Shown here one piece after another: positions 1,335 to 54,847 of a DNA stretch of 64,000 nt. This stretch comes from a virus, in the IMG/VR virus record IMGVR_UViG_3300045988_037140, positions 11,143 through 75,142 of that record; one strand, written 5' to 3'. A program made the translations under genes and the position numbers. Below the pieces are notes generated by a model. It was given only the letters and a program-made list of their open reading frames with translations. It made no database searches and was not told the DNA's origin. The stretch's first letter is position 1. Each line of letters begins with the position of its first letter.

Positions 1335-1425
1335 TGCCCCGTGGTGTAATGGTTAGCACGGCGGTCTCTAAAACCGTATCCCTCTGAAGGAGTAAGTCTG
1401 GGTTCGAACCCCAGCGGGGCTGCCA
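1335..1425 (+). tRNA. amber-suppressor tRNA (anticodon CUA, reads UAG), type II-like with Gln-like determinants
   Basis: Anticodon stem gcggt/accgt with a 7-nt loop ctCTAaa (U33, A37). T-arm ctggg-ttcgaac-cccag; acceptor tgccccg/cggggct with a U1-U72 mismatch; discriminator G73; CCA. The variable arm is 20 nt (ctct-gaa-ggag hairpin); D-arm gtgt-aatggtta-gcac. Confidence 0.7.
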
Positions 1426-4116: not shown

Positions 4117-4462
4117 GGGGGTATAAAGGTTTCGACGGGGCATTGAGAAGTTAGAACACACGGGTAGGCGACCTCCTTACGGCGCAACAAACAATTAACT
4201 GACAACAATTATTTTGATTCTCACATGGCAGCTTGAGCTTTTGCTCGCTGACCATTAACTGTATACCTCTGGTTTCTTTGTTTTCCTTCTAAAAATAAAG
4301 TGGTGGATGCGTTGTACTTATAACCGGTACGGCCCTATAGTTTAGTTAGTTTGTTCTTGACTTGTGGCTCTATTCAAAAGCTATAAATAAGGACTATCGT
4401 GTAAGAATGTTCTGATTAAGTAGATGTTTCGGACACGGGTTCGACTCCCGTTACCTCCACCA
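4117..4462 (+). ncRNA. ssrA: tmRNA (SsrA), phage-encoded
   Basis: 5' end gggggtataaaggtttcgacgggg and 3' end tttcggacacgggttcgactcccgttacctccacca match the canonical tmRNA ends (GGGG...GGUUUCGACGGGG ... UUCGGACGCGGGUUCAACUCCCG...CUCCACCA). The acceptor gggggta/tacctcc pairs. Candidate tag ORF: ...DNNYFDSHMAA followed by TGA. Confidence 0.75.
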
Positions 4463-4781: not shown

Positions 4782-5642
4782 ATGAAGATTTATAATCCAA
4801 TTAACTATTCCTATATCACTGTTGTAGAAATTCCAAAGACAGAGATTTCAAAGTTCGATATGGCGCTATGTCAACAGCCTCGTTAGACTTTGAAAGCCTA
4901 CTATGATAGTTGCGCTGTTAAGCCTTCTATCGTTTCCAATGGTGGTTTCTTCAGCATGACTGATGGTTCAACAGCCTTTAACTATACCGATGAAGGTATA
5001 ATCATTAGTTCTAATTCTCTTTACAAAGAAGGATTTGGAACTGTCAATGGAGAGTTAAAGTACGGTGTAATTGGTCAAGAGAAGTTTGAGGACTTCGTAA
5101 GTGGCTATCCAGTCTTAATTAAGGCGGGCGCCGCAGTTCCTATTACTATTGCTTCCGAGATTAACTACAAGGCTAGAAGAACTATTCTAGCTTATAATAA
5201 AGAAAATATCTTTATTGTAGCTATTGAATCTCCGGGCATGAACTTCTCACAAATGCAATCTTTCTTGCGGACTCTCAAGGTTGACTACGCTATTAACCTT
5301 GATGGAGGCGGAAGTACCAAGATATTGCATGATGGCAAGTGTATCACAAAGGCGCTTGCTAATCGTCCTGTTGATAATATAATGGCTGTTTATCTAAAGC
5401 CAAAAGTTATTTACAGAGTATAGCTTGGTGCATTTAGCAAGAAAGCTAATGCAGATGCATTTTTAGCTAAAATCAAGGCTCTTCCTGATACTATCAATGC
5501 AGGATATAAGAATGCTTATGTTCGCAAGGTTGGTAGTTATTGGAAGGTTCAAATTGGTGCGTTCTCTGTGAAAGCTAACGCAACACGAGTTGTAAATGAT
5601 CTAAAGAGTAAGGGCTATAATGCCTTCATTACGACAACTTGA
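4782..5642 (+). CDS. phosphodiester-glycosidase-like (NAGPA/DUF2233-type, ...INLDGGGS...) protein with a C-terminal SPOR domain; two in-frame TAG codons
   Basis: ATG at 4782 with RBS gaggaaggtga. In-frame TAGs at 4884 and 5421 join the ORF-track pieces 4692-4886 and 4890-5423 to a C-terminal extension ending at TGA 5640-5642. The extension contains two SPOR-type repeats, RV*LGAFS and KVQIGAFS. Confidence 0.55.
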
Positions 5643-34922: not shown

Positions 34923-34960
34923 TAATAAGGTCGAGGGAGAAATCCCTCGACCTATTTTTA
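34923..34960 (+). terminator. rho-independent terminator
   Basis: ggtcgaggga-gaaa-tccctcgacc followed by tattttta. Confidence 0.55.
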
Positions 34961-34983: not shown

Positions 34984-36390
34984 TTGGCGGATAATGCTCA
35001 AGTTATTTGGGATTATCTCAAATCAAAAGGATTAAGTAACTGCGGCGCCGCAGGTCTAATGGGGAATCTATTCGCGGAAAGTGGACTTATTCCAACTAAC
35101 TTATAGAACTCATATGAGAGCAAGTTAGGAATGAACGATGCCTCGTATACTGCGGCTGTTGATAATGGCTCCTATACCAATTTCACGCATGATTCTGCTG
35201 GATATGGTTTAGCTCAATGGACATATTGGAGCCGCAAGCAAGGTCTGTTTTAGCTGTGCAAAAGTCGAGGAAAGTCTATTGGTGACTTGAACACTCAACT
35301 AGATTTTTTATATCAGGAACTAACTACAAGTTATTCCTAGCTATTAAAAATCTTGAAGACTACCTCATCTGTTGAAGAAGCATCTAATTTAGTGGTCACT
35401 CAATTTGAAAGACCGGTAGATCAAAGCTTTGATGCACTAAAACAACGTGCTTTATATAGTCAACGTTACTTCAATACTTATTCAACGCAAAAGGAGGAAA
35501 TGGCTAAGATGAAATATTCAAACGCCAATCAACCATTGGTTTGCATGATGACCAATAGTACCTGTTATAAGCAAACCCGTAAAATGGATATTAAAGGTGT
35601 ACTCTGGCATAGTACAGGCGCCAATAATAAAACTATTAAACGTTATGTCCAACCATCTGAGAATGATAAAAATTATCAATCTCTGATTGCTAAAATTGGT
35701 AAAAATACCAGTAGAACCGATTGGAATCATAGCTCGTAGCAAGCAGGCGTAAACGCTTGGATTGGTGCTCTTGCAGATGGAAGCGTAGCCGCGGTACAAA
35801 CGTTGCCTTGGAATTATAGACCTTGGGGCTGCGGCTCAGGCCCTAAAGGTAGTTGTAATACTGGATGGATTCAATTTGAAATTTGCGAAGACAATCTAAG
35901 TGACCCCAACTACTTCGCTAAAGTCTACAAAGAGGCTTGCGAATTGACCGCCTACTTATGTAAGACATATAATATCAATCCAAATGGTTCTGTAAATGTA
36001 AATGGCGTAATAGTCCCAACTATTCTTTGCCATCAGGATAGTTATCAGCTTGGTCTTGGCAGTAATCATGCCGATGTATACCACTGGTTCAAGAAATATG
36101 GCAAAGATATGGCAACTGTCCGCAAAGATGTTGCTGCTTTAATGCAGTCTAAAGTTATCGAGGAGGATGATGAAGACATGACTCAAGAGAAATTCAACGA
36201 AATGATGAATGTATATTTAAGCCAGCTTGCTGCACAACCAGTTACTTGGGAACAAGATGCAATGACTTGGGCACAAGCTAATGGCTTAATCAATGGCAAT
36301 GAAAAGGGCCAATTAATGCCAAAGCGTTTTATGACTCGTGGTGAATTTGCAGCCGTTCTAAAACGTTATGCTGAAAAGAGTGGTCAATAA
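34984..36390 (+). CDS. modular endolysin: phage-lysozyme2-type N-terminal domain (GAAGLMGNLFAESG) + central domain + C-terminal SLH cell-wall-binding domain; four in-frame TAG codons
   Basis: TTG start 8 nt after ggagg. In-frame TAGs at 35104, 35251, 35338 and 35737 join the ORF-track pieces 35353-35739 and 35803-36390 in one frame. C-terminal WAQANGLINGNEKGQLMPKRFMTRGEFAAVLKRY is an S-layer-homology motif. Confidence 0.65.
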
Positions 36391-36716
36391 TGACTCGTCA
36401 AACAAGAGGGAAAAGAAGACACAACTAGAAGAGAGAATTTTCTAAACAACTTATTTGCGATATTCGCTCTTTATTGTGGATTGTAACTATCTCTGGTATT
36501 GCTCTTGCTTTCTATTGCGTACATCTCGGTTATTTAGGCACTCTTCCATGGATTAGTGCATTAGTAGGATTGCCATGGTCTGCGCATGGTATTGTTTGCT
36601 CTTTTTACTTAAACATGAGTAAATCCGATCACCGCAAGGGTGGGATTACTTATGATTTAGCTATGTGTGAGAAACAATAGCAGCAAGTAGTCGAGGATGA
36701 AGCAACCATTTAATAT
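36390..36716 (+). CDS. holin (two TM helices) with a possible N-terminal KR-rich extension read through TAG (antiholin-like dual start?)
   Basis: ORF-track core 36474-36680 (two TM). ATG 36390 overlaps the lysin TAA and is in the same frame through TAG 36426. The TAG at 36678 extends the C-terminus by QQVVEDEATI to TAA 36714-36716. Confidence 0.5.
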
Positions 36717-36718
36717 TA

Positions 36719-36762
36719 AAGGCTTAGTAGACTTAATAGTCTACTAAGCCTTTTCTTATTTT
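36719..36762 (+). terminator. rho-independent terminator
   Basis: ggcttagtagact-taat-agtctactaagcc followed by ttttctt. Confidence 0.55.
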
Positions 36763-36853
36763 AAGCTTGATTTTTCATAAAATATATGGTATTATATATT
36801 CAGAAATAAAAAAGGAGAACTTAAAAATAAATGAAGTATTTGAGGTATAGCGA

Positions 36854-43796: not shown

Positions 43797-44714
43797 ATGA
43801 TTTATTATATATTATCAGGCTTGGTTATTCTTGCGTTAATAGGATATGTTTTATATCTCCGCAATAATCGGCTTTAGGTAGTATTGATAAATAAAGAAAG
43901 ACAAGAAGAAAATAAGCGTATTGAACAAGATATTGCATTGAAATAGAGAGAATTAGCAAAAGTAAAAGAAGATATTGTATCACATAATGAAATTGTCAAT
44001 TCTTTAAACGATACTGCGAATAAATTGCGGGAAAGCGCTGAATAGCGAGCGAAAGAGAGCGCTAAGGCTCAATTTGAAAAGAAAAGTAAAGAGCTTGATG
44101 AAACATATCAAGCTAAAGAAAAATATCATTTAGCAGAACTTCAGCAGATAACTAATCAAATTTCACATTAGCAAGATAAACTCCATGAATTAGAAGCTAA
44201 ATAGTTATCTTATATCTAGGCTCAATAGCGCCAAGAAGCGATTGCCGCAGATTAGGACTATTATCGTCTTGCTATTGATGAATTTAGTTTGAATGATATT
44301 ACTCTATTGCGTGATTTGCAAATTCACTTTGTGAAAAAGGAAATCATTGATAAAGTAATATGGGAGACCTATTATCGTCCTGCGTATGATATTCTTATGA
44401 CCCATCTATTTGCCACTAATAAAGGTAAAGTATGCGGTATCTATAAGATTACCGATCTAACAACTGGTTAGGCTTATATTGGTTAGTCTGTTGATATTAA
44501 AGAGCGTTTTAGACAGCACATTAAAACCTCTTTAGCATACGGACCTGCGACTAATAAGTTATATTAGGCGATGCAAAAATCTGGTCAATATAATTTTATA
44601 TTTGAGGTTTTGGAAGAAGTGCCTAGAGATTAGTTAAATGAACGAGAGACTTATTGGATTGAGTTCTATAAGACTAAAGAGCTAGGTATGAATGGAACTC
44701 GTGGAGGTTCATAA
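43797..44714 (+). CDS. GIY-YIG endonuclease domain fused to an N-terminal TM + coiled-coil (i-spanin-like) region; about 13 in-frame TAG codons
   Basis: ATG 43797. N-terminus MIYYILSGLVILALIGYVLYL (TM), then a Q/E/K-rich coiled coil. C-terminus GIYKITDLTTG*AYIG*SVDIKERFRQH...WIEFYKT = GIY-YIG. TAGs fall at conserved-motif positions. Ends at TAA 44712-44714. The ORF track shows only the fragment 44289-44471. Confidence 0.55.
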
Positions 44715-51008: not shown

Positions 51009-51182
51009 ATGAAGAACTCTAAGGCTATTGATTATCAGATTACTAAGAAGCAGTTTGATGGTATTCTTTCTACTCGTAAGGATGATGAAGCAAAGAAGAA
51101 CCCTTATCAGTATGTAATGGGGATTATCAATGAGAGTTATGGTCTGCGTGGTACGGTAACTCATCTCGTTATTATTGAGTAA
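51009..51182 (+). CDS. hypothetical small protein
   Basis: RBS aaggagaagataat; 57 aa; not in the ORF track. Confidence 0.3.
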   Translation: MKNSKAIDYQITKKQFDGILSTRKDDEAKKNPYQYVMGIINESYGLRGTVTHLVIIE

Positions 51183-52285
51183 TGTCTCGTTATTATGATA
51201 AAGACGAGCTAAAGGAGAAACTAGAACTAGAGTAGATTTATGACTTGGTAGAAGCTTGGGGAGGCGAGCCTGAGTACACAGATGGAGGGCTTATCTCCCA
51301 AACCATTTGTCACAATTTACCTGGCGAAGGTTCCCGCAAGCTTTATTATTACACTAATACTCGATTGTTTAGATGCTATACTGGCTGTATTGATCCTACT
51401 TTTGATATCTTTGACCTATGTATCAAGGTAATGAAAAATCAAAAGCAACTGAAATGGGAAATGTACGATGCTATGGATTATATAGCATCGTACTTTGGTT
51501 TTGATGGTATCGAAAAACAAGAGGAACAATCGGAGTTAAAAGACTGGGACATATTTAAGAAACACAATCTGCGGCTTCCAGAAAAGAAACCTATGGTTCA
51601 ACTAAAAGAATATGATCCAGTTATTCTTACTCGCTTTGTTTATCCTCGAATTTCTCGTTGGGAGCGAGAAGGAATTAGTGATGAAGTAAGTAAGAAAAAT
51701 CTTATTGGCTACTATCCTGGCGGCGAGCAAATCACAATTCCGCATTTTGATATTGATAATCGTTTGATTGGTATTAGAGGTCGTTCTTTAGCGGCAGATG
51801 AAGCTGAAAGATATGGTAAATATAGACCTCTATTGATTGGTAAGCAATTATACAATCATCCATTAAGTATGAATCTGTATAACTTAAACAATAGCAAAGA
51901 TAATATCGCTAAAATCCACGCGGCGATTATTTTTGAGAGCGAAAAGTCTTGTTTGATGTATCAATCATACTATGGGCATGAGAATGATATTTCTGTCGCT
52001 ATTTGCGGAAGTAGCTTATCGAGCTATCAGGTTGATTTGTTGAAACAAGTTGGCGCGAGAGAAATTGTGATTGCTCTTGATAGGCAGTTCCAAGAAATTA
52101 GCGATGATGAGTTTAAGCGATTAAAAGCTAAACTTATTCATTTTTATAATAAATATAATAACTCTATAAGAGTAACAGCTATATTCGATAAAGCTATGAT
52201 TTCACCTTATAAAGCTAGCCCTATTGACCAAGGGCCGCAAGTTTTTGAGAAGTTATTAGCCGAACGAATTATTCCAAAAGGTTAA
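51182..52285 (+). CDS. DNA primase (CHC2 zinc finger + Toprim; DnaG/T7-primase-like)
   Basis: CHNLPGEGSRKLYYY...FRCYTGC zinc-binding domain and Toprim EIVIALDRQ. ATG 51182 is in frame through TAG 51233 and adds ...ELE*IYDLVEAWGG, which aligns with the DnaG N-terminus. The alternative start is TTG 51245. Confidence 0.6.
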
Positions 52286-54082: not shown

Positions 54083-54847
54083 ATGAGTCGTTTTATTAAA
54101 GTTATCACAAGTTTAATCATTATATTGTCTTTATGCGGATGTAGCTATGGCCTAGCGGTCACTACTCAAGCCTATTCCGTGCCGTATAACGAAACTGTTA
54201 GTTATACTCTTGATGATATGGATACATTGGTTGAGCTTATTGCGGAACAAATCTCGAATATGAACGCCGCACATCAAATGGCTGAAGCTGCTAGATAGCT
54301 AGGCTATAGTGAAGACCATGACGTCATTGTATTAGCAAAACAAGAACACGCTGATGCAAATGCTTTGAGAATGAAATATCAAAGCATATATGATCAACTC
54401 ATGGAACATTGGCATCAAAAGGAAGAAGAGTACCCAACAGCTACTTATATATGGACCTACTTCAAAGATCTGGGCTACAGTAACCAAGTTTGCGCTGGCA
54501 TTCTTGGTAATATAATGGCTGAAACTGGAGGTAACACATTAGACATTCAAGCCACGATTTCTGGTAACGGATATTATGGTATATGTCAATGGAATAAAGC
54601 CTACTCAAATGTATGGGGAGCCTCGTTAGAAGAGCAATGCGACTATCTGCGAGATACTATTGAGTACGAGTTCGATACATTCGGTTATGTTTATAAGAGA
54701 CATTTTGATTACAATAGTTTCTTGAATTTAACCGACATTAAGAGCGCTGCTCTAGCATTTGCTAAATGCTATGAGAGATGCGGTTCTGGGAGCTATTATA
54801 CGCGACAGCAAAATGCTATTGCTGCATATAATTACTTCATAAGTTAA
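54083..54847 (+). CDS. lipoprotein with a phage-lysozyme2-type peptidoglycan-hydrolase domain; one in-frame TAG
   Basis: Signal peptide + lipobox LSLCGC. TAG 54296 joins ORF-track pieces 54083-54298 and 54365-54847 in one frame. VCAGILGNIMAETGGN is paralogous to the endolysin N-terminal domain. Confidence 0.55.

Follow-up and report, generated by a model that had tools for sequence, protein, structure and literature searches.

The DNA analyzed here, called the window, is a stretch of 64,000 nt from the IMG/VR virus record IMGVR_UViG_3300045988_037140 (positions 11,143-75,142), and the locus of interest is a lysis cassette in which an endolysin gene is followed directly by a small holin-like gene, both carrying in-frame TAG codons. 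A sequence-only reading had proposed that the holin-like gene is translated from two starts, giving a long antiholin and a short holin depending on whether a TAG between them is decoded, and that lysis is thereby coupled to a suppressor tRNA. Sequence comparison and structure prediction, on which the analysis of the locus was based, favor another explanation, namely one ordinary gene (36390-36713) in which the TAG codons are sense codons and which encodes a putative holin gated by the suppressor tRNA of the phage. As a whole, this explanation is given a probability of about 0.78. The features are collected in Table 1.

Table 1. Features of the lysis cassette and the suppressor tRNA gene, in window coordinates.
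Feature	Position	Strand	Basis or remark
Amber suppressor tRNA, anticodon CUA, 91 nt	1335..1425	+	ARAGORN; Rfam tRNA model, 54.5 bits; alignment and fold
Intrinsic-terminator-like hairpin (11 bp, 7 GC) with T-run	34928..34953	+	Downstream of the phoH-like gene, ahead of the endolysin ribosome-binding site
Endolysin, 468 codons	34984..36390	+	Phage_lysozyme2, Amidase_2 and SLH domains (Pfam, PHROG)
Holin-like gene, 107 codons, single ATG, ends at TAA 36711-36713	36390..36713	+	Sequence; homologues; DNA of relatives
In-frame TAG1, codon 13	36426..36428	+	Within the variable basic N-terminus; the conserved EFSK motif follows three codons later
TTG, codon of Leu29	36474..36476	+	Start called for the code-11 reading frame; invariant Leu, not a start
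In-frame TAG2, codon 97	36678..36680	+	Inside the Gln run CAA TAG CAG CAA; taken as Gln
Intrinsic terminator, 16-bp stem, then T-run TCTTATTTTA	36718..36753	+	Closes the lysis cassette

The holin-like gene and its start codon

The ATG of the holin-like gene (36390-36392) shares one base with the endolysin stop codon TAA 36388-36390 (TAATG). From this ATG the frame runs through MTRQTRGKRRHN, TAG1 and KREFSKQLICDIRSL to TTG 36474, and the 28 codons from ATG to TTG, the in-frame TAG and the position of the ATG at the endolysin stop, all described in the sequence-only reading, were confirmed by reading the sequence. Under the standard code (code 11), the called open reading frame (ORF) covers 36474-36680, that is, 68 codons from the TTG to TAG2. 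Beyond TAG2, ten sense codons (QQVVEDEATI) lead to TAA 36711-36713; the extension to TAA that had been noted there is real, and the 12 codons given for it count the TAG and the TAA.

The homologue search retrieved 189 relatives, and most of the 120 listed are 90-128 residues long. The strict motif [FY]S[KQR]..-DIR, which lies upstream of the supposed TTG start, was found in 114 of these 120 proteins and a close variant in five more, leaving as the only protein without it the 68-residue standard-code JGI call P0054. In an alignment of 48 homologues, S18, D24, R26 and L28 are invariant and conservation reaches at least 90% at K19, L21 and I25; all seven lie before codon 29, and S18 remains at least 90% conserved in 64 representatives that reach down to 23% identity. 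The segment from TAG1 to TTG 36474 (EFSKQLICDIRSL) therefore contains invariant residues of the family. Because a product started at the TTG would lose all of these residues, codons 16-28 belong to the core of the protein and are not an optional extension; the structure model places them in the same predicted helix as the first transmembrane (TM) segment. Homologues thus neither lack the N-terminal part nor leave the whole of the 28 upstream codons unconserved: codons 16-28 are conserved, and only codons 2-15 form a variable basic N-terminus, the length of which ranges from 2 to 27 residues across the family. The net charge of the 16 residues before the FSK motif is +6 with TAG counted as glutamine (Gln), and this charge belongs to the only isoform. 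At the other end, the C-terminal Ile beyond TAG2 is at least 90% conserved in the 48-sequence alignment. Since homologues conserve residues before the TTG as well as the Ile past TAG2, the true product is taken to be the 107-residue protein from ATG 36390 to TAA 36713, and the comparison identifies the 68-codon ORF as an artefact of standard-code translation.

The holin-like genes of relatives were also compared at the DNA level, locus by locus. In eight related loci from other metagenomes, the reading frame, the placement of the ATG at the stop of the endolysin gene, the ...I-TAA end and the hairpin behind it are all retained, a degree of conservation that is judged to be more than chance; the ATG overlaps or abuts the endolysin stop in all nine loci. 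The positions of the TAG codons vary among these genes. The window and L001-L003, which come from other metagenomes and encode proteins about 95% identical, have TAG at codons 13 and 97, and L013 (90%) has it at codons 13 and 20, the latter within EFSK-TAG-LICDIR. L011 (about 80%) carries TAG at codon 20 and in the poly-Q tract. Among other related recoded phages, L012 has four TAGs in the C-terminal poly-Q, L007 and L008 have one tail TAG each, and L004 has none in the holin-like gene and one in the endolysin gene; the holin-like gene of the unrelated 45-kb contig L010 is also free of TAG. At the TAG1 site itself, TAG is present in L001-L003 and L013, TCT in L011 and Leu in the deposited protein P0011, with the frame open throughout. 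At TAG2 the relatives carry CAA, CAG or TAG within the same poly-Q tract, followed by the conserved ...TI-TAA end. As judged from these alignments, the pattern is one of exchange with CAA/CAG or other sense codons and not that of a fixed separator between antiholin and holin.

Two explanations would have the gene yield more than one isoform. The dual start of the sequence-only reading, in which a long basic antiholin would arise from ATG 36390 only if UAG were decoded and low suppression would yield a short holin from TTG 36474, is hardly credible. The ATG and the basic N-terminus with its net charge of +6 do exist, and extra N-terminal positive charge is a known antiholin feature of lambda S107 and S21-71. 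However, no Shine-Dalgarno-like sequence was found 5' of TTG 36474 (TGCGATATTCGCTCTTTA-TTG), the equivalent codon is TTA in L008 and CTA in L010, four invariant and three nearly invariant residues would be lost, relatives have their TAGs within the core motif or confined to the C-terminal tail, unlike a separator of two starts, and the sole database protein that begins at this Leu is the standard-code call P0054. The frame also contains no alternative ATG, GTG or TTG codon in the stretch from its upstream TGA to ATG 36390 or in that from TAG1 to TTG 36474. The holin-like protein resembles lambda S107/S105 and phage 21 S21-71/S21-68 in being a small membrane protein with a basic N-terminus, encoded beside an endolysin; unlike those pairs, it has one usable start, the proposed second one would remove conserved residues, and it shares no sequence homology with them. 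The isoforms of the known pairs differ by two or three residues, those proposed here by 28 codons across a stop. In a few distant homologues (P0027, P0032, P0049, P0050 and P0053), a basic leader is followed by a second Met that immediately precedes the FSK motif (e.g., MHGKRIKKPK-M-AFSK); this arrangement, which is absent from the window, counts in favor of a dual start and may truly provide one in those phages. The other explanation places the isoforms at the C-terminus, where incomplete read-through at TAG 36678 would give products of 96 and 107 residues in a ratio that tunes holin triggering, and it is distinctly improbable. Tail TAGs do recur in L007, L008, L011 and L012, the end of the tail (...D/E-x-T/P-I) is conserved, and the C-terminal cytoplasmic domain of lambda S modulates timing; but partial suppression is without support, the tail TAGs lie at different places, and poly-Q tracts are rich in Gln codons, which is where code 15 predicts TAG.

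TAG as a sense codon and the suppressor tRNA

The comparisons identify the window as part of a large phage in which TAG is read as a sense codon, as in genetic code 15, with Gln as the most likely amino acid. All eight code-11 ORFs of at least 100 residues that end in TAG in the window are pieces of longer in-frame ORFs, and RecJ, NrdD and the endolysin, which are among these eight, match known families on past the TAG; this is consistent with TAG not being a terminator and is no proof for every gene. The endolysin gene contains four in-frame TAGs, at 35104, 35251, 35338 and 35737, which the Pfam and PHROG matches cross. Of 20 aligned sites at which relatives have TAG, nine show Gln in the window. 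Codon 20 of the holin-like gene is CAA in the window and TAG in L013 and L011. In the SPOR-domain protein encoded at 4782-5642, TAG occupies the conserved Q of a repeat (YRV-TAG-LGAFS versus WKVQIGAFS in the same protein). TAG1 of the holin-like gene is placed among the sense codons, most likely as Gln. Nonsense mutations or assembly errors were rejected as a source of the TAGs, as the same TAGs recur across independent metagenomes and the suppressor tRNA is conserved. The replication genes DnaB, Pol III alpha, helicases, GyrB, GyrA, ligase and ThyA of the window contain no TAG. In the part of the ORFs that was scanned, no gene for a release factor or a tRNA synthetase was detected.

The first 15 kb of the window hold 32 tRNA genes and a transfer-messenger RNA (tmRNA) gene, and one of the tRNAs has the anticodon CUA (Table 1). 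This tRNA is near-identical in eight IMG/VR contigs (L015-L022, 82-148 kb), with one base different in one contig, and in most of them it is flanked by tRNA-Asp and tRNA-Ala. It has G73, a U1-U72 mismatch and a class-I-like D arm with a 4-bp D stem, which fit Gln identity, together with an unusually long variable arm of 20 nt that forms a CUCU-GAA-GGAG stem-loop. Because of this arm, Gln is likely and not proven, and the TAG sites of the window itself, which align to varied residues in relatives (S, R, V and Q), likewise count against a firm assignment. Serine, prompted by the long variable arm and G73, was considered and ranked below Gln on the class-I-like D arm, the weak 1-72 pair and the alignments favoring Q. 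For crAss-like phages, proteomics has confirmed that TAG is read as Gln (PMC9523058). No hepatitis delta virus (HDV)-like or theta ribozyme was detected near the suppressor tRNA at E <= 1. Elsewhere in the cluster, ARAGORN reported a tRNA with the four-base anticodon 'taaa' and an 8-nt loop at 8450-8523, conserved in L017 and L019, and the tmRNA at 4117-4462 encodes the tag peptide DNNYFDSHMAA.

Gln codon usage across the window falls into two classes, in which TAG-free genes strongly favor CAG and TAG-bearing genes favor CAA. The ratio CAA/CAG is 0/33 in the Band_7 gene (31256-32752) and 0/12 in the RNA ligase gene (23551-24819), both free of TAG, and 22/5, 13/2 and 12/1 in the TAG-bearing genes at 34984-36390, 51182-52285 and 54083-54847. 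The highest TAG density of the window, 12 of 26 Gln-type codons, is found in the ORF at 43797-44714 (+), which encodes an N-terminal TM segment, a Gln/Glu/Lys-rich middle that is possibly a coiled coil, and a GIY-YIG nuclease domain, and which resembles the strongly recoded homing endonuclease reported for Agate phages by Borges et al. (bioRxiv 10.1101/2021.08.26.457843).

The phages of the phAss-1 / Phassvirus group have genomes of about 133-136 kb, read TAG as Gln and have predicted Clostridia hosts (PMC10607447). The present phage shares with them a similar genome size, TAG in many ORFs and tRNA-CUA genes, and the SLH domain of its endolysin suggests a Firmicutes-type host. This is a likeness only: the search of the lysis and gyrase regions against the INPHARED collection showed no nucleotide similarity to deposited phages.

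The putative holin family and the borders of the cassette

The product of the holin-like gene was described previously as a two-TM core. Hydropathy analysis showed that TM1 (about residues 27-47) is clearly hydrophobic, in agreement with that description, while TM2 (about residues 52-75) is only moderately so. The AlphaFold model, made on the protein P0001 that is 96% identical to the window protein, predicts a helical hairpin (H12-46 and H49-79; predicted local distance difference test (pLDDT) 86-92 at residues 21-70) plus a C-terminal helix. The hairpin has a basic N-terminus and a charged C-terminus, and both ends probably lie inside the cell, a predicted two-TM topology like that of class II holins such as S21. 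Family hallmarks include the N-terminal basic stretch with the FSK motif, LPW...GLPW.AHG in TM2, KSDH-x-x-GGIT after TM2 and a C-terminal ...P/T-x-I end.

The family comprises 260 clusters at 50% identity, all without annotation, and its distant members match only phrog_17876, to which PHROGs assigns no function. Searches of deposited phages by blastn and tblastn returned only Dulem virus 33, in which the relative is a hypothetical protein beside the PGRP gene, and an unannotated fragment. Genes of the family lie directly 3' of three types of endolysin on three phage backbones: a lysozyme plus amidase in the phages of about 146 kb, a CHAP protein in contig L010 (45 kb) and a PGRP amidase in Dulem virus 33 (40 kb). 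In the window, the holin-like gene is the sole ORF between the endolysin gene and the terminator. On position and architecture only, the protein is therefore designated a putative holin.

The endolysin probably starts at TTG 34984, which was chosen on the Shine-Dalgarno sequence and the N-termini of relatives: it stands seven bases past GGAGGTG, and the product would begin MADNAQVIW, comparable to MSNEQIIW and MTNAQIIW in relatives. Public gene calls for near-identical contigs begin at a later ATG, 35059 (443 residues), and lose some of the lysozyme domain. A second Phage_lysozyme2 protein, encoded at 54083-54847 (+) with one TAG, has a lipoprotein-type signal (...LSLCGC...) and lies remote from the lysis cassette, among replication genes.

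The lysis cassette of the window lies between two strong terminator hairpins. Upstream of the endolysin gene, L004, L008 and L011 also have a hairpin at the position of the window hairpin, though its sequence differs. Only about 17 nt separate the window hairpin from the Shine-Dalgarno sequence of the endolysin gene, leaving therefore no space for a sigma-70-type promoter, which suggests that the lysis cassette is transcribed via terminator read-through or antitermination. At the other border, an equivalent hairpin is found 3' of the holin-like gene in L001, L004, L007, L008 and L011-L013. Directly after this terminator stands a promoter-like element, TTGATT-17-TATTAT (with TG), at 36767-36795 (+), which probably serves the RNase H/gyrase operon, and the AGCTTGATTTT motif after the terminator recurs in all large-phage relatives.

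TAG-rich lysis genes and the timing of lysis

TAG usage was counted as the fraction of Gln-type codons in seven related loci and compared by Fisher's test. TAG accounts for 48 of 194 such codons in the lysis genes (12 of 30, or 40%, in the holin-like gene alone) and for 1 of 238 in the flanking PhoH, RNase H, PTH2, GyrB and GyrA genes, that is, 25% versus 0.4% (p = 1.6e-17, a value that overstates independence because the seven loci are related). In the window alone, the counts are 6/38 and 0/56 (p = 0.003). The lysis genes are thus a TAG-rich island among TAG-free neighbors. Together with the tRNA-CUA, this supports, as an inference, a dependence of lysis-gene expression on the suppressor tRNA; to this extent the link between lysis and the suppressor that had been proposed for the locus stands, although such a link is not new and has already been published for recoded phages.

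The mechanism would operate as follows. Early in infection, the host release factor would terminate translation at TAG, halting the endolysin at codon 41 and the holin at codon 13. Translation of the holin probably relies on ribosomes that finish the endolysin, since its ATG has a weak Shine-Dalgarno sequence at best and overlaps the endolysin stop (TAATG). With such coupling, and given the TAGs, as many as six TAGs, the four of the endolysin gene and the two in the holin-like gene itself, would therefore have to be suppressed to give full-length holin. The output of lysis proteins would then be a steep function of suppressor activity, and lysis would be held back until the code switch. The gene structure, the reading of TAG as sense, the tRNA-CUA and the TAG enrichment of the lysis genes are shown by the analysis, and holin function, translational coupling, a host with the standard code and the role in timing are the parts that we infer. 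A stronger version, in which the output of holin would follow about the sixth power of suppression efficiency as a switch-like timer set by the tRNA-CUA and the 96- and 107-residue products would act as a holin/modulator pair, is speculative and quite unlikely.

The classical amber mutant of a holin gene is lambda Sam7. As in Sam7, an amber codon in the holin gene would make lysis conditional on an amber suppressor tRNA; unlike in Sam7, the ambers here are natural, several in number and present also in the endolysin gene, and the phage itself supplies the suppressor. According to Borges et al. (bioRxiv 10.1101/2021.08.26.457843), lysis genes are preferentially recoded in crAss-like and Agate phages, which was proposed to prevent premature lysis, and the biased families are an amidase and a spanin in the crAss-like set and a TM-domain protein in Agate. 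The present phage is like those code-15 and code-4 gut phages (crAss-like, Agate and Jade) in its phage-borne suppressor tRNA, in the concentration of recoded stops in lysis genes next to replication genes in the standard code, and in a lysis module scattered among other modules of a large genome; it is unlike them in the gene family concerned, an unannotated hairpin protein with the FSK motif.

Two alternatives bear on this interpretation, one on the role of the TAGs and one on the identity of the protein. With the same gene structure, the TAGs may have no regulatory role and may simply drift neutrally with CAA/CAG in genes transcribed after suppression has set in, a possibility to be taken seriously even if it is rather unlikely. 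Their positions differ among close relatives and fall mostly in variable or poly-Q segments, the L004 holin-like gene has none, TAG also occurs in RecJ, NrdD and a kinase gene, and two terminators bracket the cassette, so that transcription could set the timing. Opposed to this are the very strong contrast to adjacent genes on the same strand and the lysis-gene bias that independent recoded lineages share according to Borges et al. (bioRxiv 10.1101/2021.08.26.457843). The protein, for its part, might be a different membrane component of the lysis cassette (e.g., an antiholin or regulator) or a membrane protein with no relation to it, which is unlikely on the present evidence. No curated holin family matches it, TM2 has only moderate hydrophobicity, the small phages L010 and L014 have further small ORFs close by, and the ORF just downstream in L010 has hydrophobic first codons; but the window leaves no other ORF between endolysin and terminator, and with all three endolysin types the gene is regularly the direct neighbor, its start coupled to the endolysin stop. 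Holins, moreover, form very diverse families, many of them without a Pfam model.

Several observations weigh against the explanation preferred here, a single gene for a suppressor-gated putative holin. Pfam and PHROGs gave no match for the protein and, for 48 close and 64 distant family members, no holin family but at most families of unknown function, and a Foldseek search of the AlphaFold model against BFVD gave no hit at E <= 0.001; the Pfam, PHROG and BFVD searches together yielded no link in sequence or fold to a characterized holin. TAG is found in some non-late genes as well (those for RecJ, NrdD and the kinase), and the standard code of the host is presumed. TAG positions drift among relatives, and L004 has a TAG in the endolysin gene and none in the holin-like gene; the role in timing might therefore have arisen as a side effect of late expression, with no selection for a gate.

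For annotation, standard-code gene callers cut the holin-like gene to 68 codons, as in the JGI protein P0054, and split the endolysin gene or call it short, whereas reading TAG as Gln restores both genes. The analysis also flags an unannotated and widespread family of candidate holins, marked by the N-terminal FSK motif and the C-terminal Ile. With these gut phages of about 146 kb, in which the holin-like gene appears to be translationally coupled to the endolysin gene, the locus adds one more lineage whose TAG-rich lysis genes stand among replication genes free of TAG, and it lends support to the published proposal that recoding of stop codons protects the phage from lysing its host too early.

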